Of a stretch of DNA of 64,000 nt, positions 1,404 through 42,917 are shown piece after piece. Below the pieces are notes generated by a model. That model had not been told where the DNA came from and did no database searches. It was given only the letters and a program-made list of their open reading frames with translations. This DNA comes from Planctomycetota bacterium (lineage in GTDB: Bacteria > Planctomycetota > UBA8108 > JACQVS01). Position 1 is the stretch's first letter; each line of letters starts with the position of its first letter. The DNA lies in the NCBI GenBank assembly GCA_041569895.1, contig JBFFXF010000001.1, positions 1,043 through 65,042 of the forward strand. Direction: 5' to 3'. Position numbers and translations under genes: made by a program.

Positions 1404-1581
1404 CGTCCTCGTTCGATGCTTCTTCGAGGTGCCTGTTCGTGTCTGGTCGCGAAAGAGCTCGGCGGGTCGCGGGATCGACGGCCGGCGGCCGCGAGATATC
1501 GGAACAATCATTTGAACTTGTCATTGTAACCGCGAGACGTGGCGTTGAGAAACGAGGACTTCGCGGTTATTCTCGCGTTCA

Positions 1582-3252
1582 ATGGCGAAAACCGCGAAGA
1601 GTCGACCGAGCGCGCCTCCGGCGCCGCGCCCTCCGCGAGAGCGGGAGGCGGTGCTCGTCGCCAGCGGCGACCTGCGGCTCTCGGCGAACCAGGTCTGCTG
1701 GCCGGCGCAGAAGGAGATGGAGAAGCGCCTCGGCGATGCGGTCGCGCGCGAGGGCTGGCGGATCCGGCGAGGCCACGCCTACGACTCGGGGCAGCGTCAC
1801 GGCTTCATCGACAGCCAGAAGCGCGGCATGGAGGTCTTCCGCGGCATCCATCCCGACGCGCCCCTCATCGTCGCCGAGGCGGTGTGGCAGTACAGCCACC
1901 ACGTCCTCCACGGGCTCGCGACGCACCGCGGACCGATCCTCACCGTCGCCAACTGGAGCGGGCAGTGGCCGGGGCTCGTCGGCATGCTCAACCTCAACGG
2001 GTCGCTGACCAAGGCCGGCGTCGAGTACTCGTCTCTCTGGAGCGAGCGCTTCACCGATCGGTTCTTCCGCGCGGGTCTGCGCCAGTGGCTGCGCACCGGC
2101 CGGATCGCGCATGACACGTCGCACGTGCGCGACCTCGACCACTTCGTGCTCCCCGAGAAGGACGAGGCGCTCGGCAGGCGGCTCGGCGAGGAGCTCAGGC
2201 GCGACAAGGCGATCATGGGCGTCTTCGACGAGGGCTGCATGGGGATGTTCAACGCCATCATCCCCGACCACCTGCTCAACCCCACCGGCGTCTACAAGGA
2301 ACGACTGAGCCAGTCGGCGCTCTGGGCGGCCATGCGCCGCGTCGAGCCGGACGAGGCGCTCGACGTGCGGCGCTGGCTGGAGCGCAAGGGGATGCGGTTC
2401 CACACCGGCAAGGACCCCGGAACGGAGCTCACCGACGACCAGATCCTGGAACAGTGCCGCATGTACCTCGCCGCCGTTCGCATGGCGCACGAATTCGGTT
2501 GCGCGACGATCGGCATCCAGTACCAGCAGGGGCTCAAGGACGTCTGTCCCGCCTCGGACCTCGTCGAGGGCCTCCTCAACAACGTCGATCGCCCGCCGGT
2601 CCGCCACGCCGGCAAGGGCGAGGTCCTCTATCGCGGCAAGGCGCTGCCGCATTTCAACGAGGTCGACGAGTGCGCGGGCCTCGACGCGCTGGTGACCAAT
2701 CGCGTCTGGACGGCGATGCGCCTCGAACCCGAGACGACGCTGCATGACCTGCGATGGGGCGATCACTACTCGGGCGACGGCGTCGACGACTACGTCTGGG
2801 TGTTCCTGATCTCCGGGGCGGCGCCGCCGCAGCACTTCATCGGCGGCTATCGCGGCGCCTCCAGCGAGCGCCAGCCGCCGATGTACTTCCCGCTCGGCGG
2901 CGGCACGCTGAAGGGGATCTCGAAGCCGGGGGAGATCGTCTGGAGTCGCGTGTTCGTCATGGACGGTCGCCTCCACTGCGACATCGGCCGGGCGCGCGTC
3001 GTCAAGCTTCCGGAAGGGGAGACGCAACGCCGCTGGCGGCTGACGACGCCCCAGTGGCCGATCATGCACGCGGTGCTCCACGGCGTCTCGCGAGATCAGA
3101 TGATGGCCCGCCACCGGTCGAATCACATCCAGGTCGCCTACGCGCCGAGCGCGGAGCGCGCAGACGCAGCGCTGGCGGCGAAGGCGGCGATGCTGCGCGA
3201 GATCGGCGTCGAGGTGCACGTCTGCGGCAACCGGAACGGACTCGTCGAGTGA
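1582..3252 (+). CDS. sugar isomerase-like protein (L-fucose/L-arabinose isomerase superfamily, tentative)
   Basis: 556-aa ORF with good codon periodicity. Family assignment by loose resemblance only. Its TGA shares a base with the next ATG (3252). Confidence 0.5.
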
Positions 3253-4121
3253 TGCCCATGAGATCTTTCCCCTCTGTCGAGTGCTCTGTTTTCGTCATTG
3301 CCGCGCTTGCCGGGTGCGTCACGACGCCCTCGTCGGTTCACGTCGAGCGCGAGGTGATCGGCCGGTCGCTCGAGGGTCGCCCGATCGAGGCCTACATCGT
3401 CCACGGCCCTGGAGCCGATGAGGCGCTCTTCGACGCCGGCAGCGGCGTCGAGACGCTGCTCATCTTCGGGGGCATCCACGGCAACGAGACGCTCACCGTG
3501 CCTCTCGTCCAGCGCCTGCTCGACATCGCGCTCGTCGATCAATGGCTCGCGAGCGGCAAGCGGCTCGTCATCGTGCCCGCCGCGAACCCCGACGGGCTGG
3601 CCCGCGGCGTGCGGCACAACTCGCGTGGCGTCGACCTCAACCGCAACTTTCCGGCGTCGAACTGGAAGCGGCGCGGACGGCGGCACGGCGTGTTGCCCGC
3701 GAGCGAGCCGGAGACACGCGCGCTGATGGGTCTCGTCGAACGGTACCGTCCCGCCCGCGTCCTCTCCGTGCACGCCCCGCTCCACTGCGTCAACTACGAC
3801 GGTCCCGCGCACGGCGTCGCCCGGGCGATGGCGACGGCATCGGGTTACGAGCTCAGGAGCAGCATCGGATATCAGACGCCGGGCTCGTTCGGCAACTGGG
3901 CCGGCGTCGATCGGCGCATACCGGTGGTGACGCTCGAGCTGCGCCGCGATCTGAGGCGCGGCGAGGTCTGGGACGAGCTCGGCAATGCGGTGCTGACCTT
4001 CGTGCGCTATCCCGCCGGGGAGCTGTTCGCGCAGGGCGATCAGCTCTCGGAGAGTCCGAGCCGCTCGAACCGCCACTCCTCGACCGGCACGCGCTCGTCG
4101 AGCGCCAGCTCGCAGGAATAG
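3252..4121 (+). CDS. M14-type zinc carboxypeptidase / gamma-D-Glu-meso-DAP amidase-like protein (MpaA / succinylglutamate desuccinylase-aspartoacylase family), secreted
   Basis: N-terminal lipoprotein-like signal (AALAGC), HGNE zinc-ligand motif (GGIHGNETL), NPDG and RNFP motifs. ATG at 3252-3254. Confidence 0.7.
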   Translation: MPMRSFPSVECSVFVIAALAGCVTTPSSVHVEREVIGRSLEGRPIEAYIVHGPGADEALFDAGSGVETLLIFGGIHGNETLTVPLVQRLLDIALVDQWLASGKRLVIVPAANPDGLARGVRHNSRGVDLNRNFPASNWKRRGRRHGVLPASEPETRALMGLVERYRPARVLSVHAPLHCVNYDGPAHGVARAMATASGYELRSSIGYQTPGSFGNWAGVDRRIPVVTLELRRDLRRGEVWDELGNAVLTFVRYPAGELFAQGDQLSESPSRSNRHSSTGTRSSSASSQE

Positions 4122-5479
4122 CCGTAGCCCGGCGCGTGCAGCGAGCCGCACTCGATGCGTCCATCCTCGATGCGGACGTGCGGCAGGCCGTCGCGCACGG
4201 TGTAGATGTCAGGATGGGTCCGCGCCGCCGAGTCGCGTTCCCGGACGGGCAGGTGGGCGAGACCGCGGAAGTAGTGGTGGCCGTTCCTCTCGGCATGGGT
4301 GACGCCGACGACGGCGAGCGTCGTCAGGTCCTGCTGCAGCGGCACCACCGCCAGATTGGCGAGGTCCTCGCCGGTCTGGAAGTACCTGCGCTCGCCGCAC
4401 TGCTCGTTCAGCCGGTGGGCGTGCCTGCAAAAGCTCAGCGCCTTGAACACGCCCTTGCAGTTCTTGACGGAGCAGCCACGGTAGCCGAGCTCGGTCGCGC
4501 GGGGGAACGCGTTGAGGTCGTCGTCCGATTCGTCGATGATCACCGGGCGCAGTCGCCCGAGCCGCTCGACCGCCGGCCGCACGTCGTCCTCGAGCGCGAG
4601 CTCGCGCGCCAGCGGCTGCTCGATGAACACGATGCTCTCGACGAACCGCGCGCCCGCCTCGGTGCGGCGGAGCCCCTCGATGAGCTCCTCGAGCACGCCG
4701 AGATCGCGGTACTGCTCGTTGCCGTCGAGGGAGATCCACACGCGGTCGGGACAGACGCTGGCCAGCAACTCGGCGATGCGTCCGAGACGCTCGAGGTCGT
4801 GCGCGGAGTCGCCGCTCACCTTGACCTTGAAGTAACGCAGCCCGTACGCGCGCACCGCCGCCTCGAGCGACTGCGGCAGCCCGTCGTCGAGGCGTTCCTC
4901 GTCGGGGATATCGTCGTCACGGATGAAGTCGCCGAGTCCGACGGTGTGACGCGCGGCGATCGACGCGCGCGGGGTGGCGGGCAGCTCGGGACCGCTCTGA
5001 TAGCCGAGCAGCCCCTCGTGGAGCGCCTCGAAGAACGACACGCCGGCGAGCCGGCACGTCGCGTCGATCAACGATCTCTCGACCAGCGAGCTGCCGAACG
5101 ACGCGGTCAGCTTGTTGAGGCCGAGCTCGCCGCACGCCTCGAGAACGCCGGGATAGGCCGCTCTCCAGAGAGAGTACGACGCCGTCGCCGTCCTGCCGCA
5201 CTCGACGTAGACGCGCCGCGCCGCGTTGATCGCCGCGAGCTGATCGTCGACGTTTCGGCGGAAGTCGCGCCCGGGGTCCTTGTCGAACCACCGCGGCGGC
5301 AGGCAGTCGGCCCCGACGCCGCGGGCGACCCGTCCGCCGCGCGCCTCGACGGTCGTCGCGATGTGCACCAGCGGCACGGCCGTCAGACACGCGTTCCCGT
5401 AACGGAAAGGCATCCGCGTCCACGCCTCGCCGATGCGGACGTCGATCTCGCAGATACGTGATACGATGGCGGTATCCAT
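4040..5479 (-). CDS. enolase-superfamily enzyme (mandelate racemase / muconate lactonizing enzyme-like)
   Basis: KVK catalytic motif (FKVKVSG) and metal ligands LDGNE...EQP...IDESD. Start placed at MDTAIVSRICEID (5477-5479); MMVT at 5521 is an alternative. Confidence 0.7.
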   Translation of the reverse strand: MDTAIVSRICEIDVRIGEAWTRMPFRYGNACLTAVPLVHIATTVEARGGRVARGVGADCLPPRWFDKDPGRDFRRNVDDQLAAINAARRVYVECGRTATASYSLWRAAYPGVLEACGELGLNKLTASFGSSLVERSLIDATCRLAGVSFFEALHEGLLGYQSGPELPATPRASIAARHTVGLGDFIRDDDIPDEERLDDGLPQSLEAAVRAYGLRYFKVKVSGDSAHDLERLGRIAELLASVCPDRVWISLDGNEQYRDLGVLEELIEGLRRTEAGARFVESIVFIEQPLARELALEDDVRPAVERLGRLRPVIIDESDDDLNAFPRATELGYRGCSVKNCKGVFKALSFCRHAHRLNEQCGERRYFQTGEDLANLAVVPLQQDLTTLAVVGVTHAERNGHHYFRGLAHLPVRERDSAARTHPDIYTVRDGLPHVRIEDGRIECGSLHAPGYGYSCELALDERVPVEEWRFERLGLSES

Positions 5480-5565
5480 GACGCCGAGAATAATTGACAC
5501 GTCCCCGAGAGTCACCATCATCGTGGCTGCAGAGGAGTGGACTCGTTCCAAAACAAGACGCCGAC

Positions 5566-6570
5566 ATGGCCCGACTCGCAAAGACTTTCCGAATCGCTCG
5601 CTTCGGCGGGCCTGAAGTGCTCGAGCAGACGACCGTCGAGCTTCCGGAGCCGGGTCCCGGCGAGGTCGCCGTCGACGTCGAGTGGATCGGCCTCAACCGC
5701 GCCGAGATCCTCTGGCGCGAGGGGCGCTACCTCGTCCGTCCCGAGCTCCCGGCGCCGATCGGACTGGAGTGCGCCGGAGTGGTCCTCGACACCGGCGATC
5801 CGTCCGTACGCTTCGCTCCGGGCGACCGCGTCGGCGTCGTGCCGGGCACGTTCGATCCCCGCAAGTACGGGACGTATGCCGACACCATCGTCGTCCCGGC
5901 GCGGTCGCTGTTGCCGACGCCGGGCGAGCTCGACGGACCCGCGACGGCGGCCGTGTGGATGGCGTACCTGACGGCGTGGGGAGGGCTCCTCGACGTCGGT
6001 CAGCTCGAGGAGGGCTGGCACGTCGTCATCCCGGCGGCCTCGAGCTCGGTCGGAACCGCGGCGATCCAGCTCTGCCTGCACGAGGAGGCGGTGCCGATCG
6101 CCGTCACCACGAGACCCGAAAAGGCGGCCGCGCTCCGGGAGCTCGGCGTCGAGCACGTGATCGTGTCGTCGTCGGACGACGTCGTCGAGCGCGTCCTCGA
6201 GATCACCGACGGGGCCGGGGCGCGCCTCTTCTTCGATCCGGTCGGCGGCGCGTTGCTCGGCCAGGAGATTCGCTGCGCGGCGCCAGGGGCGAGAATCGTC
6301 GTCTACGGCATGCTCGATCAGACGCCGGCGACGATCGACACCGCGGGCCTGATCGCCCGCGGGGCGCGAATCGAGGGATACTTGCTTCCGAGGACCACCG
6401 GGGATCCGCAGGTCTTCGACGTCGCCGTCGGACAGATCGTCGACGCGATCTCCAACGGCGAGGTGGAGCCCGTCGTCGACCGCGTCTTCCGGTTCGGCGA
6501 GATCGCGGAAGCACATCGCTACATGGAAGCAGGGAGTCAGGTCGGGAAAGTGGTCGTCGGGGTGCACTGA
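5566..6570 (+). CDS. MDR-family NAD(P)H:quinone oxidoreductase / zinc-type alcohol dehydrogenase-like protein
   Basis: PGPGEVAVDVEWIGLN and AASSSVGTAAIQL Rossmann motifs. ATG at 5566. Divergent from the enolase gene across an AT-richer spacer. Confidence 0.8.
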   Translation: MARLAKTFRIARFGGPEVLEQTTVELPEPGPGEVAVDVEWIGLNRAEILWREGRYLVRPELPAPIGLECAGVVLDTGDPSVRFAPGDRVGVVPGTFDPRKYGTYADTIVVPARSLLPTPGELDGPATAAVWMAYLTAWGGLLDVGQLEEGWHVVIPAASSSVGTAAIQLCLHEEAVPIAVTTRPEKAAALRELGVEHVIVSSSDDVVERVLEITDGAGARLFFDPVGGALLGQEIRCAAPGARIVVYGMLDQTPATIDTAGLIARGARIEGYLLPRTTGDPQVFDVAVGQIVDAISNGEVEPVVDRVFRFGEIAEAHRYMEAGSQVGKVVVGVH

Positions 6571-6602
6571 GCCCCGTCGTCCGCGGCCCGGCCACCGGAA
6601 CC

Positions 6603-8633
6603 GTGTTCTGCCAGCGCTGCGGACTCCACTTCTCAGGCGTACGGACCGGCGGGCACTGCCCGAGCTGCGGTGGTGTCACGGGGGCGACCGCGGCGCCGGG
6701 CGAGCAGGAGGGCAGCGTCGCCGTCATCCACGACGATGGCGTGAAGGACGATGGCGTGAAGGACGATGGCGTGAAGGACGCTGGCGTGAAGGACGCTGGC
6801 GTGAAGGACGCTGGCGTGAACGACGCTGGCGTGATCGACGAGACGAAGACCGAGTCGCGAGACGCCGGCTGGCGACGCGGCGACGTCGTCGCGGGCAAGT
6901 ACGAGATCATTCGCAAGATCGGCTCGGGCGGTTTCGGCACGGTCTACAAGGTGCGTCACATCCAGCGCAAGAAGCTCTACGCGCTGAAGACGCCGCATCC
7001 CGACTACGTCCGCGACGAGGCCTTCCGGAAGCGATTCGAGCGCGAGATCGAGGCGATGGAGCGCTTCGTGCACCAGGACATGGTGGTGGTGCGCGATTCG
7101 GGCATCACCGGCGCCGGCGTCCCGTACTACACCATGGACTTCATCGAGGGCGAGAGCCTGCGCGAGGTGATGGACCGCGAGGGGCAGCTCGAGCTGAGGC
7201 GCGCGTTGAACATCACACGGCACGTCCTCGAGGTGCTCGATGCCGCGCACCGCCATCGCATCATCCACCGCGACATCAAGCCGGACAACGTGCTGCTCAC
7301 TCGGCGCGCGGGGAGGGAAGTCGTCAAGGTCCTCGATTTCGGCGTCGCGAAGCTGCTCGACCTCGTCGGCACCGCGACCATCACGGGGGGCATGCGGGTC
7401 GGCACGCCGAGATACATGTCGCCCGAGCAGGTCGCCGGCGAGGAAGTCGACGGGCGCAGCGACGTCTTCGCCGTCGGCATCGTGCTCTACGAGGCGCTCA
7501 CGGGCAGGCATCCGTTCGCCGTCGACCGCGATCCGATCCGCACGACGGCCGCGATCGTCAGCAAGAAGCCGGAGGCGCCCGAGGTCTACCGGACGGACCT
7601 GCCGCGCGGGCTCTCCGACCTCATCATGCGCATGCTCGAGAAGAAGCCGAGACGGCGTCCCCAGACGGTGGCGGAGGTCATCGAGTCGATCCCCCGGGTC
7701 GACAGCAGCGCCTCGCGCTCGGTAGCGCGGGCCGAGAGCCTCCGCTTCGTCGAGAGCGCGCCGCGGCGCAGCGTGTCGTCGCTCGTCCTCTCGCAGGAGA
7801 CGTCCGTCGGGATTCGGCGTGCGTTCCTCTTCTTCAAGCCGTCAGTGACGCTCGGCCGTTCGAACGACCGCTCGCGCGGAATCGACAACGACATCATCCT
7901 GAGACGCCTGCCGTGCCGGTCATCGCGCCGTGACGCCGAGAACTGGAAGCGCAACCTCACCATCAGCCACCGCGTCGCGTCGATCCGCGTCGACCGCTCG
8001 GCCGCCGTCATCGAGCCCTGGCCGGACTCGATGTCGGGAATCGTCGTCAGCGGGCTCCGGAGCCGCGAGCCGGTGCGCATCCAGTCGGACCGGTTTCACG
8101 TCGCGGTCGGCGAGCGCGCGATCGAGCTCGACGGGTACCGCGTGCTTCGCGACTCCTCCCGGAAGCCGGTCGACCTGTCGTTCATACCGCCGCGTGACAC
8201 CGGCGATGAAGCGGACTCGCCGTCGATCGGCTACTCGAATCCGTCGTGCGAGATCAACTGCGTTCGCCTGACGCGCAGCGAGAATCACCCGCTGCATTCG
8301 TACTTCATCGTGGCGCGACGGCTCGCCATCGGCTCCGGCGCGGGCGCCGAGCTGCGTATCGAGGGCGAGGGTGTCGAGGGGCACCACGCATCGCTCATAT
8401 TCGATCGAGGGGAGCTGTTCCTGATCGCGGTGGGCACCGTGCGCGTCGGTCGCGCCGGCGACGGCGTGCGCGAGGCGTCGCGGTCGCGGGCCGGCGCGAG
8501 CCCGACGGTCGACACCGAGACGATCCTCGCGCCGGGAGACGTCTACCCGGTGACGCCCGGCGTGTCCCTCGCGTTCGGCTCCGCGCGCCTGGTGGCCGAG
8601 GACATTGACGAGTGGATGTTCAAGCGAGCATGA
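6603..8633 (+). CDS. Ser/Thr protein kinase with N-terminal C4 zinc ribbon, DxGVK pentapeptide repeats and two C-terminal FHA domains
   Basis: Hanks kinase motifs [23 protein letters not shown] and SPE. CQRCG...CPSCGG zinc ribbon at the N-terminus. Two FHA-like segments in the last 300 aa. Start assigned to GTG 6603, the first start after the upstream stop. Confidence 0.8.
6729..6840 (+). repeat. 15-bp tandem coding repeat (DxGVK x7) inside the kinase gene
   Basis: Direct reading: gacgatggcgtgaag units repeated 7 times with D->A drift. Confidence 0.8.
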
Positions 8634-9229
8634 CCGACGACGAACCACACGACGTGACGCGCATCCTCGGCGAGATCGCCGCCGGCGACTCCTCGGCCGT
8701 CGGGCGCCTCCTTCCCGTGGTCTACGATCGACTTCGCGCGCTCGCCGGGAGCTACTTCCGCGGACAGCCGGCGGCGCACACGCTCCAGCCGACCGCGCTC
8801 GTCCACGAGGCCTATCTGAAGATGGTCAACCAGCGCGACGCCCAGTTTCGCGATCGCGCGCACTTCCTCGCCGTGTGCGCCGTCGCCATGCGCCAGATTC
8901 TCGTCGATCACGCGCGGGAGCGCGCCGCGGCGAGGCGCGGGGGCGGCTGGCGCCGCATCACGCTGTCGGGCGTCGACACGCCGTCGGGCAACACGCGCCA
9001 GATCGACGTCCTCGCCCTCGACGAGGCGCTCAACGACCTCGCGGAGCTCGACGAGCGTCAGGCGCTCGTCGTCGAGTACCGTTTCTTCGGCGGCATGAGC
9101 GTCGCCGAGGTCGCGGCGCGCATCGGCGTCTCGGAGAGGACCGTCGCGGACGACTGGCGCATGGCGAGGGCGTGGCTCCACGCCAGACTCGACGAGGGCC
9201 CGTCTCACGGCGGAAACGGTGACGTCTGA
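8630..9229 (+). CDS. ECF-type RNA polymerase sigma factor (STK-associated ECF subgroup, no cognate anti-sigma nearby)
   Basis: HDVTRILGEIAAGD and ALVHEAYLKM region 2, C-terminal region 4 with SERTVADDWRMARAWL. ATG overlaps the kinase TGA (ATGA) and its TGA overlaps the next ATG. Confidence 0.85.
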   Translation: MTDDEPHDVTRILGEIAAGDSSAVGRLLPVVYDRLRALAGSYFRGQPAAHTLQPTALVHEAYLKMVNQRDAQFRDRAHFLAVCAVAMRQILVDHARERAAARRGGGWRRITLSGVDTPSGNTRQIDVLALDEALNDLAELDERQALVVEYRFFGGMSVAEVAARIGVSERTVADDWRMARAWLHARLDEGPSHGGNGDV

Positions 9230-12200
9230 TGGACCGCCGCGAGCGTCACCAGCAGGTGCGCCGGCTCTTCCTGGAGGTCTGCGACCGTCCGCCGGAAGAA
9301 CGGCGGTCGTACCTCGAGGAGGCGTGCGACGGCGACCGGGAGCTGATCGACGAGGTCGAGCGGCTGATCGAGCACGACTCGCGCTCGCAGGAGCTGGTCG
9401 ACGAGTCGCAGCTCGAGAAGCGCGCCGACTGGCTCGTCGGCCACCTCGGCGAGGGTGAGGGTGACGGCGAGGGTGACGGCGAGGGTGACGCCGGGGGTGA
9501 CACCGAGGGTTTCGAGGAGACGCTTCCGGAGCGCATCGGGCGCTATCGCGTCGTCGGCGTCCTCGGCCGCGGAGGCATGGGCATCGTCTACGAGGCGGAG
9601 CAGGATGAGCCCCGCCGTCAGGTGGCGCTCAAGGTGATCAACCCCGGTCTCGCCTCGGGCCGCGCTCTCGACCGTTTCCGCCACGAGGCCGAGATCCTCG
9701 GCAAGCTCGAGCACGCGGGAATCGCGCGGATCTACGAGGCCGGCACGGACCGGCGCGGCGGCGCGGTGACGCCGTTCTTCGCCATGGAGCGCATCGCCGG
9801 CAAGCCGATCCTGCAGTTCGCCACCGAGCGTGATCTTTCCGTGCGCGAGCGTGTCGAGCTGATCGCCAGGACGTGTGACGCGCTCGACTACGCGCACTCG
9901 AGGGGCATCGTCCACCGCGACCTGAAGCCCGGGAACATCCTGGTCGACGAGACGTCGTCCGTGCCGCAGCCGAAGATCCTCGACTTCGGCATCGCGCGAA
10001 TCATCGACGTGGACGCCCAGACGGTGACGATGCAGACCGGAACCGGTCAGCTGATCGGCACCGTTCCGTACATGAGCCCCGAGCAGGCCGCCGCGACCGG
10101 TCAGGTCGACGCGCGGAGCGACGTCTACTCGCTCGGCGTCGTGCTCTACGAGCTGCTCGCCGGACGGCTTCCGCTCGACCCCCGCGGCAAGGCGATCCAC
10201 GAGGCGGTTCGCGTGGTCCAGAAGATCGACCCGCCGTCGCTCGGGTCGATCGACACCCGGCTGCGCGGTGACCTCGAGACCATCGTCGCCAAGGCGCTCG
10301 CCAAGGAGCCGCCACGGCGCTACGCGTCCGCCGCCGACCTCGGGGCCGACCTGCGCCGCTACCTCGACGACCAGCCGATCCTGGCGCGTCCGCCGACGAC
10401 CTTCTATCAGCTGTGGAAGTTCGCGCGGCGCAACAAGCCGCTCGTCGCCGGTGTCGTGGTGGCGTTCGTCGCCATGCTCGCGGCGACGATCGTCTCGCTG
10501 CGCCAGGCGAGCATCGCGCTGGATCGAGAGCGCATCGCGCTCCTGCACGCGTACCGCGCCAGCCTCGCCGCCGCGGCGACCGCCGTGCGCGATCGCGACC
10601 CGCTCGCTCACCAGGAAGAGCTCGAGTCGTCGGCGGAGCGGCTGCGCAACTGGGAGTGGCAGTACTGGAAGAGCCGCATCGACAGGAGCTCCGCGGTCAT
10701 CGAGACGGGCGAGCGGATCGTCAATGCGACCTTCTCCGGCGCCGGTGACCGTGTCGTCCTCGTGCGGGGCGACGGCGTCATCGAGACCTGGCGCCCGGAT
10801 CTCTGCACACGGTCGGCCTCGGTTCCGACCGACGCGCGGGTCGTCCACGAGGCCGCCTTCGACCGCGACGTGACGCGCATCGCGTGTGTCACCGGCGCGG
10901 CGCGGGACGAGATCGGGCTCTGGGACGTCTCCTCCGGCGAGCGTCGCGGCGCGATCCGACTCTCCGCGAGCTGTCACAGCCTGCGCTTCTCTCGCGATGC
11001 GCGCTGGATCGTCGGCGCCGGCATCGAACGCGTCGCGTGGATCTGGGACGGCTCGAGCGCCGAGCCGTTGACGGTCGCCAGAAAGGAGCTCGGCAGGGTC
11101 TCGATTCCACGGCCGATCGCGTTCGTGCAGTCGGCCGGCGACGTGGTCATCGGGGGAAGAAGCGGCCTTCTCCACCAGCTCGATCTGCCCACGGGGGAGA
11201 CTGTGAGGCGCGTCAACCTCGACACGCCGGACATCCTGTGCATGGCCTTTTCCTCCGACGACGGCGTGTTCGTCTTCGGCGAGGCGAGCAACAAGGCGTA
11301 CATCTGCGACGCGGTGAACGAATCGGTGAACTGGATCCTCAGGGGGCACAGGGCGCCGATCCGGGCGCTGGCTCTCAGTCGCGACGACGCGCTCCTCGTC
11401 ACGGCCGCCGACAGGACCGTGCGGCTCTGGGACGTCGCCACGGGCGGATCTCTCGCGACCTTCACCGGTCACACGGACGAGCTCTCCGGTGTCGTCATCT
11501 CTCCGGGCGGAGAGAGGATTCTCTCCCGCGCGCTCGACGGCACCGTGCGCGTCTGGGAACCACGGAGCGAGATCGACGTGACGCTCGGGCTCATCGAGGG
11601 CTCGCATCCTCGCGCCGCGCGCCTCACGCCCGACGGACGGCTGCTGCTGGTCGCCGTGTTTCATCGACGCGTCGAGCTCTGGGACCCGCGCACCGCCGAG
11701 CAGATCGTCGCGCACGAGAGCACGCTGTCGCCGAGGCTCACGGACCTCGTGGTCTCGCCGCGCGATGGGAGGCACGTCGCGTTCGCGTCGAGCGCCGGCG
11801 AGATCGAGCTCCGCGAGGTGCTGTCGTGGCGGCGAGTCGCCGCGGCGCGCCATCCGAGCAGGCGCGAGATCGAGCTTGCCTTCAGTCCCTCGGGAGAACA
11901 ACTTGCCTCGACCTCGGCGGACGGTTCGGTGTCGGTCTGGTCGGTCCCCGGCCTCGAGGAGATCGCGTCACGGACGCCGGGCAAGTCGACGCCCTCCGCG
12001 GGGCTCGCTTTCGGTCCCCGGGGGCGAATCGCCACCGGCGTCGGCGCGGACGTCTGGCTCTCCGACGCCGGGACGCTCGACACACGGGTGCTCGCGGTCG
12101 GTTCCGCTGCCGTGACCTGCGTGGCCTGGGACCGCGCCGGCGAGCGGCTCGCGGTGGGGGATGCGGATGGGGCCGTGCACATCCGGCGGCGCGACGGCCG

Positions 12201-12630
12201 GCTCCTCGGCACCCTCCGCGGCCACTCCGAGGCCGTCACGCGTGTCACCTTCTCACCCGACGGGAGCCGCGTCGCCTCCGGAGCCGAGGACACGACGGTC
12301 AGGGTGTGGGACTCGACCGCGTTTCACGAGGTGACGAGGCTGAGCGAGCAGGGGGCGAGGATCCACGACCTCGAGTTCGATTCGCGGGGCACCATGCTCG
12401 TGAGCGCGTCGAACGACGGGTCGATCCGGTTCTTCGACATCGAGCCCGACTGGAAGCGACTGGTGCGACACCGGCGCATCGCCGCGAGAGCCGACGACGC
12501 GCGAAAGGCGGTGGACGCCGTCCTCGAGACCACGGACGACCACGCGCTCGCCCTCGAGCGACTCCGCGCCGAGATCGACGGCGACGACGTTCTGCTCGAT
12601 GCGGCGATCCGGGAGTTGATCCGGCGGTGA
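9229..12630 (+). CDS. Ser/Thr protein kinase with one TM helix and C-terminal extracytoplasmic WD40 beta-propeller
   Basis: GRGGMGIVYEA, HRDLKPGNIL, DFGIAR and SPEQ motifs. TM helix LVAGVVVAFVAMLAATIVSL. At least 7 WD40-like blades (e.g. RLWDV, RVWD). In-frame 12-bp GEGD repeat at 9450-9512. Confidence 0.9.
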   Translation: MDRRERHQQVRRLFLEVCDRPPEERRSYLEEACDGDRELIDEVERLIEHDSRSQELVDESQLEKRADWLVGHLGEGEGDGEGDGEGDAGGDTEGFEETLPERIGRYRVVGVLGRGGMGIVYEAEQDEPRRQVALKVINPGLASGRALDRFRHEAEILGKLEHAGIARIYEAGTDRRGGAVTPFFAMERIAGKPILQFATERDLSVRERVELIARTCDALDYAHSRGIVHRDLKPGNILVDETSSVPQPKILDFGIARIIDVDAQTVTMQTGTGQLIGTVPYMSPEQAAATGQVDARSDVYSLGVVLYELLAGRLPLDPRGKAIHEAVRVVQKIDPPSLGSIDTRLRGDLETIVAKALAKEPPRRYASAADLGADLRRYLDDQPILARPPTTFYQLWKFARRNKPLVAGVVVAFVAMLAATIVSLRQASIALDRERIALLHAYRASLAAAATAVRDRDPLAHQEELESSAERLRNWEWQYWKSRIDRSSAVIETGERIVNATFSGAGDRVVLVRGDGVIETWRPDLCTRSASVPTDARVVHEAAFDRDVTRIACVTGAARDEIGLWDVSSGERRGAIRLSASCHSLRFSRDARWIVGAGIERVAWIWDGSSAEPLTVARKELGRVSIPRPIAFVQSAGDVVIGGRSGLLHQLDLPTGETVRRVNLDTPDILCMAFSSDDGVFVFGEASNKAYICDAVNESVNWILRGHRAPIRALALSRDDALLVTAADRTVRLWDVATGGSLATFTGHTDELSGVVISPGGERILSRALDGTVRVWEPRSEIDVTLGLIEGSHPRAARLTPDGRLLLVAVFHRRVELWDPRTAEQIVAHESTLSPRLTDLVVSPRDGRHVAFASSAGEIELREVLSWRRVAAARHPSRREIELAFSPSGEQLASTSADGSVSVWSVPGLEEIASRTPGKSTPSAGLAFGPRGRIATGVGADVWLSDAGTLDTRVLAVGSAAVTCVAWDRAGERLAVGDADGAVHIRRRDGRLLGTLRGHSEAVTRVTFSPDGSRVASGAEDTTVRVWDSTAFHEVTRLSEQGARIHDLEFDSRGTMLVSASNDGSIRFFDIEPDWKRLVRHRRIAARADDARKAVDAVLETTDDHALALERLRAEIDGDDVLLDAAIRELIRR

Positions 12631-12644
12631 GCCGAGGGAGCGAG

Positions 12645-13060
12645 ACCCGTGCCCGAAAGGCTGCTCGAATAGCGGAGGTTTGCTGTCAGACGATTCATAA
12701 GGAAGGCAGGAAACTCAGGAAGGCAGGAAACGGAAGGATTGATGGGGTCGAGCTTCGTGAGCCTCACTCGCTCCTCGAACGGAGTCGAGAGGTCGGGTCA
12801 TTTGCTGATTCCACTGCGAACACAAAGAAACTCCTCTGTGCGTCTCTGTGCTCTCACGCGGTGCTGCGCTCGCGCAGCGCCGCTGTGGTTCAAATCGTAA
12901 CCGACCCTCGCTTCTCGATGATGTCTTCGAGATCGACAGAGCTCACAAGGCACGACCAGACTCGTTTCCTGCCTTCCTCTTCTTCCTGCCTTCCTTATAA
13001 ACGCGTCGCAGAGTCTCGCGGGCGGAGTCGAGCACCCTTTTCGGGCACGGGCCGGGACCG
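12645..13060. repeat. nested inverted-repeat (MITE-like or structured) element in the STK / tex convergent spacer
   Basis: Outer inverted repeat cccgtgcccgaaagg (12651-12666) vs ccttttcgggcacggg (13038-13055). Inner inverted repeat (ggaaggcaggaaa)x2 (12700-12735) vs tttcctgccttcc x2 (12962-12996). Internal palindrome gcggtgctgcgctcgcgcagcgccgc. First ~85 bp recur at 42770-42860. Confidence 0.6.
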
Positions 13061-13072
13061 GGGACGGAGGGT

Positions 13073-15559
13073 TTACCAGCGGCGCTTGAACTTGTCGAGC
13101 AGGTCGTGGAGGTCCTTCTCCGTGACCGGGCCGCTGTCGCGGCGGTCCTCGCGTGGCTTGCGGGGCGGACGGGATCGGCGCAGCTCGTCCCGCGTGCCGC
13201 GTTGCCCGCGCTCGCCGCCGTTCTGTCGCCGCTTTCCCTGCGCCTGGCCTCGCTTCTTGCGGCGCCCGCGCTCGTGTCGGGGCTTCGGCTGGAGCGCCTT
13301 CATCGAGAGCGTGATGCGCTCGCGCTCGCGGTCGACCTCGACGACCTTGACCTTGACCACCTGGCCGACGTGGATCACCTCGCGCGGGTCCTGCACCCAT
13401 CGGTGCGAGAGCTCCGAGAGGTGCACGAGACCGTCTCGCTTGACGCCGATGTCGACGAACGCGCCGAAGTTGGTGACGTTCGACACGCGTCCCTCGAGGA
13501 CCATCTCGGGCTGGACGTCCTCGATCGACTGCACGTCGTCGCGCCACTTCGGCGTCGCGAACTTTGGTCGCGGGTCGCGGCCGGGGCGCTCGAGCTCGGC
13601 GCGGATGTCGCGAAGGGTGAACTCTCCGATGCCCTGCTCGACGTCGACGAACTTGCTGAAGTCGACGCGCGAGACGAGCTCCGGCTCGCCGATCAGCTTG
13701 CCGATGTCGACTCCGAGCTCCCCCGCCATCGCCTCGACGAGCTCGTAGCGCTCCGGGTGGATCGCGGTGCCGTCGAGCGATGGCTGGTCGCCGCGGATGC
13801 GCAGGAAGCCCGCGGACTGCTCGAACGTTCGCGGACCGAAACCGCTCACCCCGAGCAGGTCCTGGCGAGAGCCGAAGCGGCCGTGCTCGTCACGGAAGGC
13901 GACGACGCTCCGGGCGAGGCGCTCGGAGAGACCCGACACGCGTCGCAGGAGCGCCACGGACGCGGTGTTCAGCTCGACACCGACACTGTTGACGACGGAC
14001 TCGACGGCGAAGTCCAGCTCGCTCGCGAGCTGCTTCTGGTTGACGTCGTGCTGGTACTGTCCGACACCGAGCGACTTCGGCGTGATCTTCACCAGCTCGG
14101 CGAGCGGGTCCTGCAGCCGGCGCGCGATCGAGACCGCCCCGCGATGCGCGACGTCCAGCTCCGGCAGCTCCTCCCGCGCGAGCGGCGACGCGGAGTACAC
14201 CGAGGCGCCGGTCTCCGGAACGATGGTGACGATCACCCCGGACAGCGCCTCGCCGCCGTGGTCGCGGATCGCCGCGCGGGCGAATGTCTCGGTCTCGCGG
14301 CTGCCGGTGCCGTTGCCGACGGCGATCGCGCTGACCTGGTGCTTGCGAGTGAGCTCGACGATGGTCGCCGCGGCCTCCTCCGGTCTCGCCTCCGGCGGCG
14401 TCGGAAAGATCGTCGACGTCGCCAGGACCTTGCCAGTGCCGTCGACCACCGCGATCTTGCACCCCGTGCGATATCCCGGGTCGATGCCCATGACGTGAAG
14501 CTGGCCGAGCGGTGGCTGCAGCAGAAGCGCCTCGAGGTTGGCGCGGAAGACGCGGATCGCCTCGCCCTCGGCCTGCTCGCGCGCGGAGGCGCGGATCTCG
14601 TTGGTGATCGAGGGGCGTAGCAGCCTGCGGTACCCGTCGCGCGTCGCGTCGGCGACCTCCTTGCCGCACGGCGAATCGATCGATACGCCCCAGCTGCGGA
14701 CGAGGCGGTCGATCTCGCGCTCGTCGTCGATCTCGAGTGTCACCAGAAGGACTCCCGCGCGCTCTCCCCGGAAGATGGCGAGCCGCCGGTGCGACGGCGC
14801 GCGGGCGAGCGGCTCCCGGTGATCGAAGTAGTCGCGATAGACGGAGCCCTTTTCCTCCTTGCCGGTGACCACCTTGACGGCCAGCCGGGCCTCGGCGGCC
14901 ATGACGCCGCGCAGGTGCGCGCGATGCCCGGCGTCGTCGGCGACACGCTCCGCGAGGATGTCACGCGCGCCTGCGATCGCGTCCGCCGCGGTGGCGACGC
15001 CCTTCTCGGCGTCGACGAACTCGGCGGCGAGCTCCTCCGGCGTGATCGTCTCACCCGCGCGCGCCAGGAGGGCGTCCGCGAGCGGCTCCAGCCCTTTCTC
15101 ACGCGCGTCGCGCGCCCGGGATTTCTTCTTCCTGCGGTAGGGCTGGTAGAGATCCTCGAGCGCCTGCTTCGTGGTCGCCGCGTGGATGGCACGCTCGAGC
15201 TCCTCGGTGAGCTGGCCCTGGTCCGAGATGCTCGCGAGGATCACGTCGCGTCTGGCGGCCAGCTCGAGGAAGTACGCCCTGCGCTTGTAGATGGTCTCGA
15301 GCTGCTCGTCGAGCAGGCCGCCGGTCGCCTCCTTGCGGTAGCGGGCGACGAAGGGGACGGTGCATTCGTCCGCGAACAGCGCGTCCGCCGCCTGCACCTG
15401 CTGCTTTCGCAGACCGAGCTCGCCGGCGATGGCGCCGACGAACCGGTCCTCGAGACGCGGCGCCTCGAGACGCGGTGCATCAAGACGCGATGCATCAGGA
15501 CGCGAAGCATCAGGACGCGAAGCATCGGGACGCGATGCGGTCTCCGTCTCAGTCGACAT
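13073..15559 (-). CDS. tex: transcription accessory protein Tex (YqgF/RNase H-like, HhH and S1 domains)
   Basis: VPFVARYRKE N-terminus, YqgF region (HVMGIDPGYRTGCKIAVVD), S1 domain (EGRVSNVTNFGAFVDIG), basic C-terminal tail. Confidence 0.9.
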   Translation of the reverse strand: MSTETETASRPDASRPDASRPDASRLDAPRLEAPRLEDRFVGAIAGELGLRKQQVQAADALFADECTVPFVARYRKEATGGLLDEQLETIYKRRAYFLELAARRDVILASISDQGQLTEELERAIHAATTKQALEDLYQPYRRKKKSRARDAREKGLEPLADALLARAGETITPEELAAEFVDAEKGVATAADAIAGARDILAERVADDAGHRAHLRGVMAAEARLAVKVVTGKEEKGSVYRDYFDHREPLARAPSHRRLAIFRGERAGVLLVTLEIDDEREIDRLVRSWGVSIDSPCGKEVADATRDGYRRLLRPSITNEIRASAREQAEGEAIRVFRANLEALLLQPPLGQLHVMGIDPGYRTGCKIAVVDGTGKVLATSTIFPTPPEARPEEAAATIVELTRKHQVSAIAVGNGTGSRETETFARAAIRDHGGEALSGVIVTIVPETGASVYSASPLAREELPELDVAHRGAVSIARRLQDPLAELVKITPKSLGVGQYQHDVNQKQLASELDFAVESVVNSVGVELNTASVALLRRVSGLSERLARSVVAFRDEHGRFGSRQDLLGVSGFGPRTFEQSAGFLRIRGDQPSLDGTAIHPERYELVEAMAGELGVDIGKLIGEPELVSRVDFSKFVDVEQGIGEFTLRDIRAELERPGRDPRPKFATPKWRDDVQSIEDVQPEMVLEGRVSNVTNFGAFVDIGVKRDGLVHLSELSHRWVQDPREVIHVGQVVKVKVVEVDRERERITLSMKALQPKPRHERGRRKKRGQAQGKRRQNGGERGQRGTRDELRRSRPPRKPREDRRDSGPVTEKDLHDLLDKFKRRW
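15448..15538 (-). repeat. 15-bp tandem coding repeat (ASRPD/APRLE pentapeptides) at the tex N-terminus
   Basis: Direct reading of cgcgatgcatcaggacg-type units. Encodes SRPDASRPDASRPDASRLDAPRLEAPRLE. Confidence 0.75.
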
Positions 15560-15717
15560 CGAAACGGCGATTCAAGCGGCGCTTCGACCGCGGTTCATGC
15601 GGGTTCGCCTGCCTCACGTCAAGGGCCGAACCACGAAACGCCCTGCACCGGGGCGATCGGTCATCCTGCCAAGATTCTTGTAAAGGTCAAGGTCCGAAAT
15701 AAGATGGACCAGCGTCC

Positions 15718-16140
15718 ATGATCTCCCACATCGTCACCCTTGCACTCATCAATATCGCGCGAGCGATCGCCGGCTTCGCGCTCGGCGTGCTGCTCCTCTA
15801 CTCGAGCGACGCGTCGGGCTATGACGGCGAGCGCGCGAAGCGGATCGTCGAGGGTGACCTGACCGCGTTCCTGGTCATCGGCTGCGTCGTGATCGCGGTG
15901 TCCTGTCTCCGCCTCGTCCAGGGCGGGGCGTCCGTGCTCGACGTCTTTCGATCGCGACGCGCGCGCGGCGGGCGCCCGCCTCGATCGCAGCTCTCGCGGC
16001 GCCTCGGACTCGGACTGTCGATCCTCGACCTGGTCAACATCGTGCTCTTCCCGCTCTCGACCGCGTGCGGCGTCTACGGACTGATCGTCTGCCGCCACCC
16101 GGATACCATCGACTTCTACGAGGGGAGATTCTCTGCATGA
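15718..16140 (+). CDS. small hypothetical membrane protein (140 aa, 3-4 predicted TM helices)
   Basis: Hydrophobic segments. Stop TGA overlaps the ATG of the downstream gene (ATGA at 16137-16140), which suggests translational coupling. Confidence 0.45.
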   Translation: MISHIVTLALINIARAIAGFALGVLLLYSSDASGYDGERAKRIVEGDLTAFLVIGCVVIAVSCLRLVQGGASVLDVFRSRRARGGRPPRSQLSRRLGLGLSILDLVNIVLFPLSTACGVYGLIVCRHPDTIDFYEGRFSA

Positions 16141-17225
16141 AATCCCGATCGACGCCCGGCGGGACGCGTCCGCGGGCGGCGAGGACCATCGTCGCCGCCT
16201 CGGCGCTCGGTCTCGCCGTCGCCCTCGGCGTGTCGTGCGCCATGCTGACGTCCCTGGCCACCGGCCAGGAGAAGGACGAGCCGCCGCTCCGCTGGTTCAA
16301 GGGCAACACCCACACCCACACCTTGAACTCCGACGGCGACAGCCCACCTGGCGAGGTCGCCCACTGGTATCGGGATCACCGGTACGACTTCCTCATGCTC
16401 TCCGACCACAACTACTACACGGTGATCGACGAGCTCCAGCGCGAGCTCGACCGCGAGCACGAGCGCCTGGACAAGCACAGGCTGCTGCTGATCCCCGGCG
16501 AGGAGGTGACCGATCAGTTTGTCGAGGGCAAGCGCGGGTACGCGCTCCACGTCAACGGTATCGACACGAGCCGGGTCGTCGGCGCCCAGGGCGGTGATTC
16601 GGTCGTCGGCGTGTTGCAGCGCTGCATCGACGCGATCCACGCCGCGGGCGGTCTCCCGCACGTCAACCACCCGAACTTCCGCTGGTCCCTCACCGCGGAC
16701 GACATCTACTCTCTCGAGCGGCTGCAGCACTTCGAGATCTACAACGGTCACCCGCTCGTCCACAACCTCGGAGGCGGCGACCGGCCCAGCCTCGAGGAGA
16801 TGTGGGACGCGATCCTCTCACGCGGCCGCCAGATCTTCGGCGTCGCCGTCGACGACGCGCACGAGTTCCAGCGATTCGGTCCCGAGCGCTCGAACCCCGG
16901 CCGCGGCTGGGTGGTCGTCCGCGCTCGCCGCCTCGACCGCAAGACCATCGTCGGCGCGCTGAAGCGCGGCGACTTCTACTGCTCGACGGGCGTCGAGCTC
17001 GAGACGGTCGACGTCGACGCCGGCACCCTGAGCCTGCGCATCCGACGCGCGAACGACTCGCTCTACCGCACCGAGTTCATCGGCCGGAACGGCCGCGTCC
17101 TCGCCGTCGACACGACCCTCGAGCCGTCCTACACGCTCCGGGAGGGCGACCTCTACGTCCGGGCGCGGGTGCGCTCGAGCGGTGGGGGGATGGCGTGGAC
17201 GCAGGCGGTGTTCGCGGGGAGTTGA
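16137..17225 (+). CDS. secreted PHP-domain metal-dependent phosphoesterase
   Basis: Signal peptide with lipobox-like GVSC. PHP signature GNTHTHTLNSDGD (HxHTxxSDG). Additional His/Asp ligands (LSDHN, HVNHPN). Confidence 0.7.
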   Translation: MKSRSTPGGTRPRAARTIVAASALGLAVALGVSCAMLTSLATGQEKDEPPLRWFKGNTHTHTLNSDGDSPPGEVAHWYRDHRYDFLMLSDHNYYTVIDELQRELDREHERLDKHRLLLIPGEEVTDQFVEGKRGYALHVNGIDTSRVVGAQGGDSVVGVLQRCIDAIHAAGGLPHVNHPNFRWSLTADDIYSLERLQHFEIYNGHPLVHNLGGGDRPSLEEMWDAILSRGRQIFGVAVDDAHEFQRFGPERSNPGRGWVVVRARRLDRKTIVGALKRGDFYCSTGVELETVDVDAGTLSLRIRRANDSLYRTEFIGRNGRVLAVDTTLEPSYTLREGDLYVRARVRSSGGGMAWTQAVFAGS

Positions 17226-17500: not shown

Positions 17501-19384
17501 CTACGGACACTCCCCCTCCCCCGCGATGCTGACGCCCTGTGAGGCCGCGACGCAGGCGTTCGAGTAGGTGCGGCCGTCGCACCCGCAGACCGGATCGAAG
17601 ACGGCCGGGCAGATGCCCGGGCGTTCCCGGCACGTGCCGCGCGCGTCGCACTGGCCGGGCTCCTTGGCGCAGACCTGATCGGCGTTGCAGTCGCGATTGT
17701 CGGCGCAGCCGCCCGGCTCGTCGCACGGGCCCCTCGACGCGACGCTGGCGCCTGCCGCGAACGCCAGACAGGCGTTCGAGTAGGTCCTGCCGTCGCAGCC
17801 GCAGACCGGATCGAGGATGCGCGGACACGCGAGCGGTCGGGGCTCGCACGCGCCGGCGACGTCGCACTCGCCGTCGGGACGCCGGCAGAGGAACCCCTCG
17901 CCGCACTCGGCGTTTGCACGGCACTTCCGTGGCGCTTCACATTCGCCCTCGTGGAGGATGCTGACGCCGGCCGAGGCCGCGTTGCACGCGTTGCCGTACG
18001 TCCTGCCGTCACAGCCGCAGACCGGGTCGAAGAGCGCGATGCAGATCTCCGGTCGGGGCGCGCAGTCGCCCGGAGCGCCGCACCGTCCGGGCGGCCGCGA
18101 GCAGAAGGAGCCCGCGCCGCACTCCTCGTTCGTCGTGCAGCCGTCGACCGGCTCGCACTCGCCGCGGCTCGCCACGTTGACGCCGGCCGCGGCGGCCTCG
18201 CACGCGTTGCCGTAGGTCTCGCCGTCGCATCCGCAGACGGGATCGAAGACGTCGGGACACGCCACCGGAATTTCCGAGCAGGCTCCCGGGCCGGCGCAGT
18301 CTCCGGGCTCGCGTTGACAGTACCGGCCGCGAGGGCAGTCGATGTTCGTCTTGCACTCGACGTCGGCGCACTGCCCGCCGTGCAGGACGTTGACACCGAC
18401 CGAGGCCGCCTCGCACTCGTTTCCGTACGTCCTGCCGTCGCACCCGCACACCGGGTCGAAGATCTCGGGACAGCCGAGGGGACGCACGGCGCACTCCCCG
18501 GCCGCGTCGCATTCGCCCGGCGCCCTCTTGCAGTACTGGGCGCGATCGCACTCGCCGTTGTCGACGCATCGTTCGGTCGGCTCGCACGGCCCGGGCCGGA
18601 GGACGCTGACGCCGGCGCGCGCCGCCTCGCAGCGGTTGCCGTAGGTCACGCCGTCGCAGCCGCAGACCGGATCGAAGATCAGCGGACATATGCCCGGCAC
18701 TGCCTGGCAGATCCCCTCGCCGTCGCAGTCGCCGTCGGACCGCGCGCACCAGAGGCCCTTGGCGCATTCCGCGTTCGACGCGCACGCTTCCTGGCCGCAC
18801 TCGCCCTCGCTGGCCACGTTGACGCCGGCCGCGGCAGCCTCGCACGCGTTGCCGTACGTCTTTCCGTCGCAGCCGCAGACCGGATCGAAGATGCGCGGAC
18901 ACGCCTGCGGTCGCTCGCGGCAGGAGCCGACGCCCTCGCAGTCGCCGGTCGCCTTCGCGCAGAAGAAGCCCTCGGGACAGCAGTCGTTCGTGTCGCAGCC
19001 CTCGTCGCACCGTGGGTAGCTGACGCAATCGAGCCGGTCGGGGGTCGGGTCCGGACCGCAGCGATCGGGTCCGGGCGCGGGAGGCGGCGGTCCGCCTCCG
19101 AAGAGGAAGGTGAAGATATAGATCGGGTCGCTGAGGTCGAGCCCGCCGGTGTCGTTGGAGTCGGCGGCGTCGCGGCACGTCGGCTCCTTGCCGCCGAGGA
19201 AGAGGAATCCGAGGATCATCACGCCGTCGGAGAGATCGAGAACGGCGTCGACGTTGGCGTCACCTCGGCGGAAGCCGCAGTCGGCCGCGACCCGCGGCGG
19301 GACCACGGCGCAAATCAGAACGGCGACGACCGCGGTGACCGCGACCACGCGCGGGACCGGGAAAGAGCGACGGCTTTTGGACAT
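17501..19384 (-). CDS. secreted multi-Kazal serine protease inhibitor-like protein (7 Kazal domains) with N-terminal dockerin-like EF-hand pair
   Basis: Signal peptide ([28 protein letters not shown]). Dockerin-like [24 protein letters not shown] and [24 protein letters not shown]. Seven repeats of [27 protein letters not shown]. ATG at 19382-19384. Confidence 0.8.
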
Positions 19385-39480: not shown

Positions 39481-39583
39481 GCTTCCCGATCCCACCCTCT
39501 GGCCGTCGAGTGTATCATAGACCCTCTTGTTTCGACTCTCCCGCGTGAAGAGAGGCCGGCGCACCCATCACGGAGTTCCTCGC

Positions 39584-42860: not shown

Positions 42861-42917
42861 GGGTCGTTTGCAGGGTTTCGCCCGGGAAGTCGAGCAGCGT
42901 TCGGGACGGAAGAAGGC

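Follow-up and report, generated by a model that had tools for sequence, protein, structure and literature searches.

A sigma factor gene between two kinase genes in a planctomycete: probably a one-kinase ECF43 switch beside a rearrangement neighbour

In a 64,000-nucleotide (nt) stretch of a Planctomycetota genome (contig JBFFXF010000001.1, assembly GCA_041569895.1; hereafter the window), the gene of an extracytoplasmic function (ECF) sigma factor lies between the genes of two Ser/Thr kinases, here called K1 and K2, and each gene overlaps the next. This arrangement raises the question of whether both kinases act on the sigma factor, and a preliminary description of this DNA had read it as a two-input phospho-switch. 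Our analysis indicated that the sigma factor and K2 probably form a self-contained switch of the ECF43 type, with K1 as a neighbour by rearrangement rather than a conserved second input. The three genes are as follows.

6603-8633, plus strand: K1, Ser/Thr kinase; GTG start, 676 amino acids (aa)
8630-9229, plus strand: sigma factor gene, ECF43-type; 199 aa, with its ATG inside the K1 stop (ATGA)
9229-12630, plus strand: K2, receptor Ser/Thr kinase; 1133 aa, with its ATG inside the sigma stop (TGATG)

All three plus-strand open reading frames (ORFs) are present, and the overlaps described earlier, ATGA at 8630-8633 and TGATG at 9227-9231, are exact in the sequence. At the K1/sigma junction (GCATGACC), which reads GC-ATGA-CC, the sigma start codon (8630-8632) and the K1 stop codon (TGA, 8631-8633) give a 4-nt overlap, so that the sigma ATG is made of the final base of K1's last codon and the TG of its stop. 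The K1 C terminus, FKRA, is intact, the orthologues ending in FKRV or FKRL. At the sigma/K2 junction (TCTGATGGA), TC-TGATG-GA, the stop (TGA, 9227-9229) and the start (ATG, 9229-9231) share a single nucleotide. The window has a G+C content of ~70%, and G+C at third codon positions is ~0.9 across K1, sigma, and K2, which supports all three as coding, while by the same measure the K1 frame 5' of 6603 is not coding-like. Locus L089, from a public contig (GCA_041609175.1) that matches window positions 2734-12589 at 99.99% identity, gave identical calls for all three genes.

The sigma factor consists of sigma2 and sigma4 only, the architecture of an ECF protein. It scored 189.5 bits against PF07638 over its full length (aa 7-188) and 206.6 bits against TIGR02999 (cut-off, 126.15), two models that we take to correspond to ECF43. 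This group is defined by co-occurrence with a Hanks-type kinase, the lack of DAED/DxxD in region 2.2, and a conserved Thr, which lies in a motif with the consensus QTTA (STTA in EcfP and QATE in EcfK) and is phosphorylated by the kinase, permitting the sigma factor to bind core RNA polymerase (PMC13147305, PMC8999054, PMC7826278). Region 2.2 of the window sigma factor reads Q53-P54-T55-A56 in place of the acidic DxxD, followed by LVHE. The motif fits the published consensus, whose third-position Thr is the phospho-acceptor, and this agreement supports the identity of the sigma factor. Its predicted phosphorylation sites are listed below; for these, EcfP and EcfK were compared with the window protein by published motif descriptions rather than by sequence alignment.

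8792-8794, plus strand: codon of Thr55, predicted phospho-acceptor in region 2.2, equivalent to EcfK T51 and to the second Thr of EcfP STTA
8960-8968, plus strand: codons of T111-L-S113, in the linker that joins sigma2 to sigma4; a second candidate region for phosphorylation, proposed from EcfK T104/T106

A sequence search of the PDB with the window sigma factor returned only a marginal region-4 match to SigF and no solved ECF43 structure for alignment. The best 80 of at least 570 sigma relatives confirmed in genome contigs were fetched (loci L009-L088; 44-58% identity; from Planctomycetota, Acidobacteriota, Gemmatimonadota, Proteobacteria, and others) and aligned with the window protein (n = 81). 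The preliminary description had suggested looking for a conserved phospho-acceptor Thr in region 2, and T55 is the predicted one, being invariant in 81/81 sequences; T51 is nearly so (78/81). Within the linker, Ser or Thr occupies position 111 in 60/81, and position 113 is Asp or Glu in 52/81 and Ser or Thr in 15/81. By analogy rather than alignment, the T111/S113 position may resemble EcfK T106 in its behaviour.

Two motifs cited earlier for this sigma factor, xDVTRIL and WRMARAWL, are family-wide features of its relatives. The first (HDVTRIL) is real, but it is N-terminal (aa 7-13) and precedes region 2, in which it had been placed. The type to which the protein had been assigned, an ECF sigma factor under kinase control, was borne out by its ECF43-like character, namely, the PF07638 and TIGR02999 scores and the replacement of DxxD by QPTA. 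The statement that no anti-sigma factor gene is present also agrees with our scan: Pfam found no anti-sigma domain in the eight flanking genes (~96-17225), which carry only metabolic or housekeeping domains or none. Taken together, the family models, region 2.2, the linkage to a kinase gene, and the lack of a nearby anti-sigma gene point to a sigma factor of the ECF43 type.

K2, encoded 3' of the sigma gene, has the features expected of its partner. By Pfam, its kinase domain spans aa 106-365 (9544-10323) with intact catalytic motifs; a single transmembrane helix follows at aa 402-429 (10432-10515), and WD40/beta-propeller matches extend over aa 634-1085, the best over 11128-12483. These data agree with the earlier view of K2 as a transmembrane kinase with a WD40 sensor. 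The extracytoplasmic, or periplasmic, side of the propeller is predicted from topology and agrees with the single-pass topology reported for planctomycete kinases (PMC11032199). Across its kinase domain, K2 matches the crystal chain of PknS(1-364) (9eed_A) with an E value of 3e-45. Its full-length kinase-WD40 homologues number in the hundreds (33-43% identity), and the best match among them is encoded immediately 3' of a PF07638 sigma gene.

The N-terminal extension of K2 (aa 3-56; 9235-9396) was modelled by AlphaFold2 (AF2) as three confident helices, with a predicted local distance difference test (pLDDT) value of 96-98 over aa 1-50. Downstream sequence of at least 1.2 kb was available for 74 related sigma loci; in 59 of them a same-strand kinase domain begins 150-900 nt past the sigma gene, and 58 of these 59 kinases share with K2 the extension motif RV..LF..A..L.P..R.AFLD.AC.GD..LRAEVE.LL. 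Because a downstream kinase is so common in these loci and nearly always carries a K2-like extension, K2 is predicted to be the canonical cognate partner kinase of the sigma factor. A Foldseek search of the extension model against the PDB gave no match at E < 1, so that an anti-sigma-like fold is neither supported nor excluded. The three-helix extension could be a sigma-docking element; it is nearly universal among the kinases that partner these sigma factors and may merit the attention of specialists.

K1 belongs elsewhere. Its N terminus carries a Zn-ribbon of the form CxxC-x12-CxxC (6609-6668) and a linker of GVKDx pentapeptides (6732-6834) encoded by an in-frame tandem repeat of 15 nt in 6.9 copies. 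K2 has a comparable acidic linker of GEGD repeats (9457-9510; 12 nt, 4.5 copies, in frame), and both linkers are likely to vary in length among strains. The kinase domain of K1 (Pkinase, aa 100-354; 6900-7664; 164 bits) retains the G-loop, HRD, DFG, and SPE motifs, and no transmembrane helix or hydrophobic segment was found in the protein. Against the Pfam FHA model PF00498, K1 reached 17.2 bits (cut-off, 20.7) in a single stretch, aa 576-611. An AF2 model of aa 380-676, built with 47 orthologues (pLDDT, 90.4; predicted template modelling score, 0.90), contains two beta-sandwiches, at aa 393-515 and 551-666, which were assigned by AF2 and Foldseek as follows.

7779-8147, plus strand: K1 FHA-fold 1
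8253-8600, plus strand: K1 FHA-fold 2

Foldseek matched the K1 C terminus to 16 PDB entries at E <= 0.001, and each of them is an FHA domain; GarA, OdhI, FhaA, MDC1, ArnA, and CT664 are among them (target TM-score, 0.55-0.69). In fold 1, which has a conserved insertion of ~17 residues (RLPCRS...ENW), the G-R and the Ser of T-I-S are invariant in the family, but conservation does not extend to the His and Asn-Gly. The Arg and Ser that bind phosphothreonine (pThr) have both been lost from fold 2, which reads G-S and E-G-x-H-A. The earlier characterization of K1 as a cytoplasmic kinase with FHA domains is therefore correct for the kinase, the ribbon, and the lack of a transmembrane segment, while the FHA domains are recognizable at the fold level and remain below threshold in Pfam. 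About 50 full-length orthologues were found (44-61% identity), and every one with a named source comes from a metagenome-assembled genome of Planctomycetota. The tandem FHA module is rare: a search of 1.84 billion proteins yielded 67 representative clusters that have it. Neither K1 nor any of 50 K1 orthologues matched a hidden Markov model of the partner-kinase extension at E <= 1. By these criteria, K1 is a member of a separate small Planctomycetota family of kinases with a Zn-ribbon, a kinase domain, and two FHA folds.

If K1 were a conserved input to the sigma factor, the two genes should travel together, and synteny offers a view of this. Thirteen distinct orthologous K1 loci with downstream sequence were compared (L001, L002, L003, L004, L005, L006 with L007 and L008, L091, L094, L095, and L097-L100; K1 identity, 41-61%). 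A sigma gene lies 3' of K1 in none of them (0/13). Instead, in 11/13 a gene for a small membrane protein (~100-165 aa) starts 5-70 nt after K1, and the recurring genes 5' of K1, found in the window too, encode an enolase-superfamily protein and an M14 peptidase. A metagenome scan with a profile of the K1 C terminus yielded seven loci, most on short contigs, and the three with downstream sequence agree with the other loci. The genes of the window that bear on this comparison are given below.

5566-6570, plus strand: Zn-dependent alcohol dehydrogenase/quinone oxidoreductase-like protein (ADH; PF00107, PF13602, PF08240), 33 nt 5' of K1
12631-13072, no strand: palindromic intergenic element of 442 nt between the convergent K2 and Tex
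13073-15559, minus strand: Tex, S1/YqgF/HHH transcription accessory protein (Pfam Tex_N, Tex_central, Tex_YqgF, HHH, S1), convergent with K2
15718-16140, plus strand: small membrane protein of 140 aa, no Pfam family; homologue of K1's usual downstream neighbour

The usual neighbour of K1 is thus still in the genome. The product of 15718-16140 is 39% identical to the small protein of L002 over 143 aa (tblastn, E 3e-22), and the next gene (16140-17225) is 65% identical to the gene that follows the small protein in L002. In the window, this small gene sits 7.1 kb past K1, with sigma, K2, and the convergent Tex gene intervening. Its homologues elsewhere include L002 10045-10503, L097 7824-8315, L098 8006-8410, L099 7963-8367, and L100 7972-8391. 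The small membrane protein is K1's conserved neighbour and has no linkage to sigma genes. The K1-family kinase and the small membrane protein form a conserved, uncharacterised adjacent gene pair in Planctomycetota that may merit specialist attention.

The closest K1 relative (61% identity) is in L004 (contig DRR683875_8693163). The DNA of L004 is colinear with the window over ADH (window 5602-6564), K1 (6876-8435), and the 3' end of Tex (13075-13633), and its gap of ~235 nt between K1 and Tex holds neither sigma-K2 nor the 442-nt palindromic spacer. The palindromic element, which has no Rfam match, therefore marks the right edge of the sequence that is present in the window and absent in L004. 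The sigma-K2 pair is best read as inserted next to K1 in the lineage of the window. In the most parsimonious history, the small transmembrane gene would have directly followed K1 in the ancestral state, Tex would have come between the two before the lineages of the window and L004 split, and sigma-K2, bordered by the palindromic repeat, would later have been inserted between K1 and Tex, exactly at the K1 stop. That the change was a gain in the window rather than a loss in L004 is a direction drawn from the outgroups.

The ADH-K1 neighbourhood is one that has been rearranged repeatedly. Compared with L004 (526-787), the window carries an extra 4.2-kb block (1400-5566) between a decarboxylase gene and ADH, comprising a fucose-isomerase-like gene, the M14 peptidase gene, and the enolase-superfamily gene (MR_MLE). 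Since the distant K1 loci have peptidase and enolase-like genes as well, L004 probably lost or moved them.

The palindromic spacer itself is predicted to fold as one long hairpin (minimum free energy, -218.9 kcal/mol; z, -7.4). Its inverted repeats are nested, with perfect outer arms of 13 nt and inner arms of 39 nt, each containing two copies of AGGAAGGCAGGAA. A related 80-nt copy (85% identical) is found at 42791-42870, between the gene 39521-42601 (plus strand) and the kinase ORF 42921-44756 (minus strand). The element resembles a miniature inverted-repeat transposable element or a repetitive extragenic palindromic element.

The view from the sigma gene is the same. A K1-type C-terminal module occurs in 0/80 loci of sigma relatives, and only the 99.99% identical contig L089 repeats the order K1-sigma-K2. 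Among the 62 loci with at least 2.5 kb of upstream sequence, four have a same-strand kinase within 3.5 kb 5' of the sigma gene, and a fifth case (L046) was seen on a shorter flank. Since each of these upstream kinases has the partner-type extension, they are partner kinases in reverse order or members of tandem modules. L046 was considered as a second sandwich, for it has kinases on both sides of its sigma gene, but both bear the partner extension and the locus looks like tandem ECF43 modules. Sigma genes near K1 were likewise examined as possible linkage and set aside: in L002 the pair lies beyond a HicAB pair and on the other strand, and in L003 a sigma gene lies 7 kb away with no adjacent kinase. 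Both were treated as chance in genomes rich in kinase and ECF genes.

How much weight does the tight junction deserve? A 4-nt ATGA overlap is a common gene arrangement. In up to 14/72 related loci, a long same-strand ORF ends within 60 nt of the sigma start. Four such ORFs were scanned, giving an M16 peptidase, a PCMT methyltransferase, a GDPD phosphodiesterase, and one protein with no Pfam match. Unrelated enzymes thus lie tightly 5' of related sigma genes, and tight packing is not evidence of partnership. The window also holds a third kinase-domain ORF (42921-44756, minus strand), which scored 128 bits against a kinase profile built from K1 and K2; with three kinase genes in 64 kb, a kinase neighbour by chance is unsurprising.

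The synteny check on the dual-kinase sandwich therefore came out negative on both sides (0/13 K1 loci and 0/80 sigma loci), which is the outcome that the preliminary description had named as refuting it, and no description of such a module was found in the literature. The proposal of a two-input phospho-switch was not supported, given that K1 lacks the partner extension, its adjacency to sigma is not conserved, the small transmembrane gene has been displaced, and L004 lacks sigma-K2. K1 is probably not dedicated to regulating the sigma factor, and phospho-crosstalk between K1 and sigma-K2 is unlikely.

As to expression, the transcription unit probably begins with ADH. A promoter scan of 5400-16200 gave one sigma-70-like hexamer pair, at 5494-5521, and a terminator scan of the same region gave nothing convincing 3' of K2; the site is a consensus match, and the scans count as weak evidence. 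Rfam found no family at gathering score in 5000-17000. Since the K1/sigma overlap leaves no intergenic room for a promoter, sigma-K2 is probably transcribed with ADH-K1, possibly from the 5494-5521 site, or from a promoter within K1. The ADH-K1 promoter would then probably co-transcribe K1, sigma, and K2, with translational coupling of the genes.

In the 250 nt 5' of the sigma genes of 77 loci, the enriched 6-mers are housekeeping -10 types, TAGAAT (13 loci) and TATAAT (10 loci), and 6-mer enrichment revealed no ECF-type -35/-10 motif in the same set that could be sought within K1. This pattern agrees with constitutive synthesis of the sigma factors and activation at the post-translational level.

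By homology to EcfP/PknT and EcfK/PknS, the switch probably operates as follows. The sigma factor would be made inactive, as the acidic residues for contact with the beta' clamp of RNA polymerase are missing from its region 2.2. K2 would sense an envelope signal through its extracytoplasmic WD40 propeller, autophosphorylate, and phosphorylate Thr55, maybe together with a linker site near T111/S113. The negative charge on the phosphorylated sigma factor would then allow it to bind core RNA polymerase and turn on its regulon.

This reading has to be weighed against others. K1 might have become a lineage-specific second, cytoplasmic input after the fusion, phosphorylating T55 or T111/S113 itself or docking phospho-K2 or phospho-sigma through FHA fold 1. 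Several points weigh against our reading and in favour of such an input. The ATGA coupling, with no room for a separate promoter, makes the K1/sigma junction unusually tight and ties the expression of sigma-K2 to K1, so that a functional link could have evolved; it is because of this tightness that a functional role of K1 survives as a minority reading. The catalytic motifs of K1 are intact, and FHA fold 1, keeping its invariant G-R and S for pThr binding, could in principle dock phospho-K2 or phospho-sigma. ECF43 factors can have two functional phosphosites, as do T51 and T106 of EcfK, and the window sigma factor has an uncharged Ser113 where most relatives have Asp or Glu. The synteny sample is limited as well, to 13 K1 loci of 41-61% identity and 80 of at least 570 sigma relatives, and its closest sister K1 is only 61% identical. 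Set against a second input are the 0/13 and 0/80 counts of K1-sigma adjacency, the missing partner-kinase extension, the presence in the genome of K1's own conserved partner, the empty site in L004, and the unrelated enzymes among the tight upstream neighbours of related sigma genes. We consider a second input through K1 improbable, albeit the strongest of the alternatives. A shade less probable still is that the ECF43 cassette, on arriving at the K1 stop, made a two-kinase gate on a two-site sigma factor in this lineage only. In that doubtful scheme, K2 would act on Thr55 and K1 on T111/S113, or FHA fold 1 of K1 would be bound to the pThr of K2 or of the sigma factor, and full activation would need an envelope signal plus a cytoplasmic signal.

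Two further readings seem to us very improbable. K1-sigma-K2 might be an ancestral operon from which other lineages, L004 included, deleted sigma-K2, and L004 has indeed lost or rearranged genes of the 1400-5566 block that other K1 loci share. However, this history requires each of the other K1 lineages sampled to have lost sigma-K2 independently, the small transmembrane gene lies 5-70 nt after K1 in other lineages, and none of the 80 sigma relatives has a K1-type neighbour. It is just as hard to credit that the sigma factor escapes phospho-control, being governed by an anti-sigma factor encoded elsewhere or by transcription only, with K2 serving other substrates. EcfK T51A is still functional in X. 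citri, and the region 2.2 Thr is hence not always essential. Yet region 2.2 of the window protein lacks acidic residues and its Thr is invariant, kinase linkage is nearly universal among the sigma relatives, two characterised members of the family are directly phosphorylated by the adjacent kinase, and the scanned flanking genes hold no anti-sigma domain. The self-contained sigma-K2 switch with K1 as a bystander thus remains the probable one.

As a separate observation, the minus-strand region 17501-19400 encodes a large, secreted-looking protein in which, as read from the translation, about eight Cys-rich repeats follow a dockerin-like N-terminal segment. By eye, these repeats are Kazal-like.

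Comparison with known systems places both parts of the locus. ECF59, ECF61, ECF62, and ECF217 of Planctomycetota, like the window, combine an ECF sigma gene beside a Ser/Thr kinase gene with the lack of an anti-sigma factor, but they are reported to have a DAED-like acidic region 2.2. The acidic motif is missing from the window sigma factor, which speaks for ECF43 rather than these groups. For K1, the best PDB matches of both C-terminal beta-sandwiches are GarA/OdhI and FhaA, which are FHA-type pThr readers of Hanks-kinase pathways, and MDC1. Compared with known FHA domains, K1 shows sub-threshold sequence similarity, an insertion in fold 1, and a fold 2 without the Arg and Ser. FHA is among the commoner accessory domains of planctomycete kinases. 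For the locus as a whole, the useful outcome is a negative one: the tight overlap alone hinted at a two-input module, and synteny reveals a recent local rearrangement.

EcfP/PknT and EcfK/PknS are the pairs in which the ECF43 mechanism is already established. In Vibrio parahaemolyticus, EcfP resembles the window sigma factor in having no anti-sigma factor, a region 2.2 without DAED, and an x-x-T-A motif, and its Thr is phosphorylated by the adjacent transmembrane Hanks-type kinase PknT (PMC8999054). The two systems differ in the motif, STTA versus QPTA, and in the sensor, which is a WD40 propeller in the window kinase; the signal of PknT is polymyxin. In Xanthomonas citri, the kinase PknS has, like K2, an N-terminal helical extension, one transmembrane segment, and a periplasmic domain. 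Its extension comprises 81 residues of undescribed function (PMC13147305), a region that is invisible in the crystal. In EcfK the phosphorylated residues are the region 2.2 Thr and Ser/Thr residues of the linker (PMC13147305), and its QATE motif keeps an acidic residue where the window sigma factor has QPTA. The X. citri locus is part of a type VI secretion system cluster, whereas no genes of that system flank the window locus. Thus, sigma-K2 differs from the characterised ECF43 examples only in its WD40 sensor, its QPTA motif, and its unassigned regulon, and it adds little to them beyond a WD40-sensor variant from an uncultured planctomycete.

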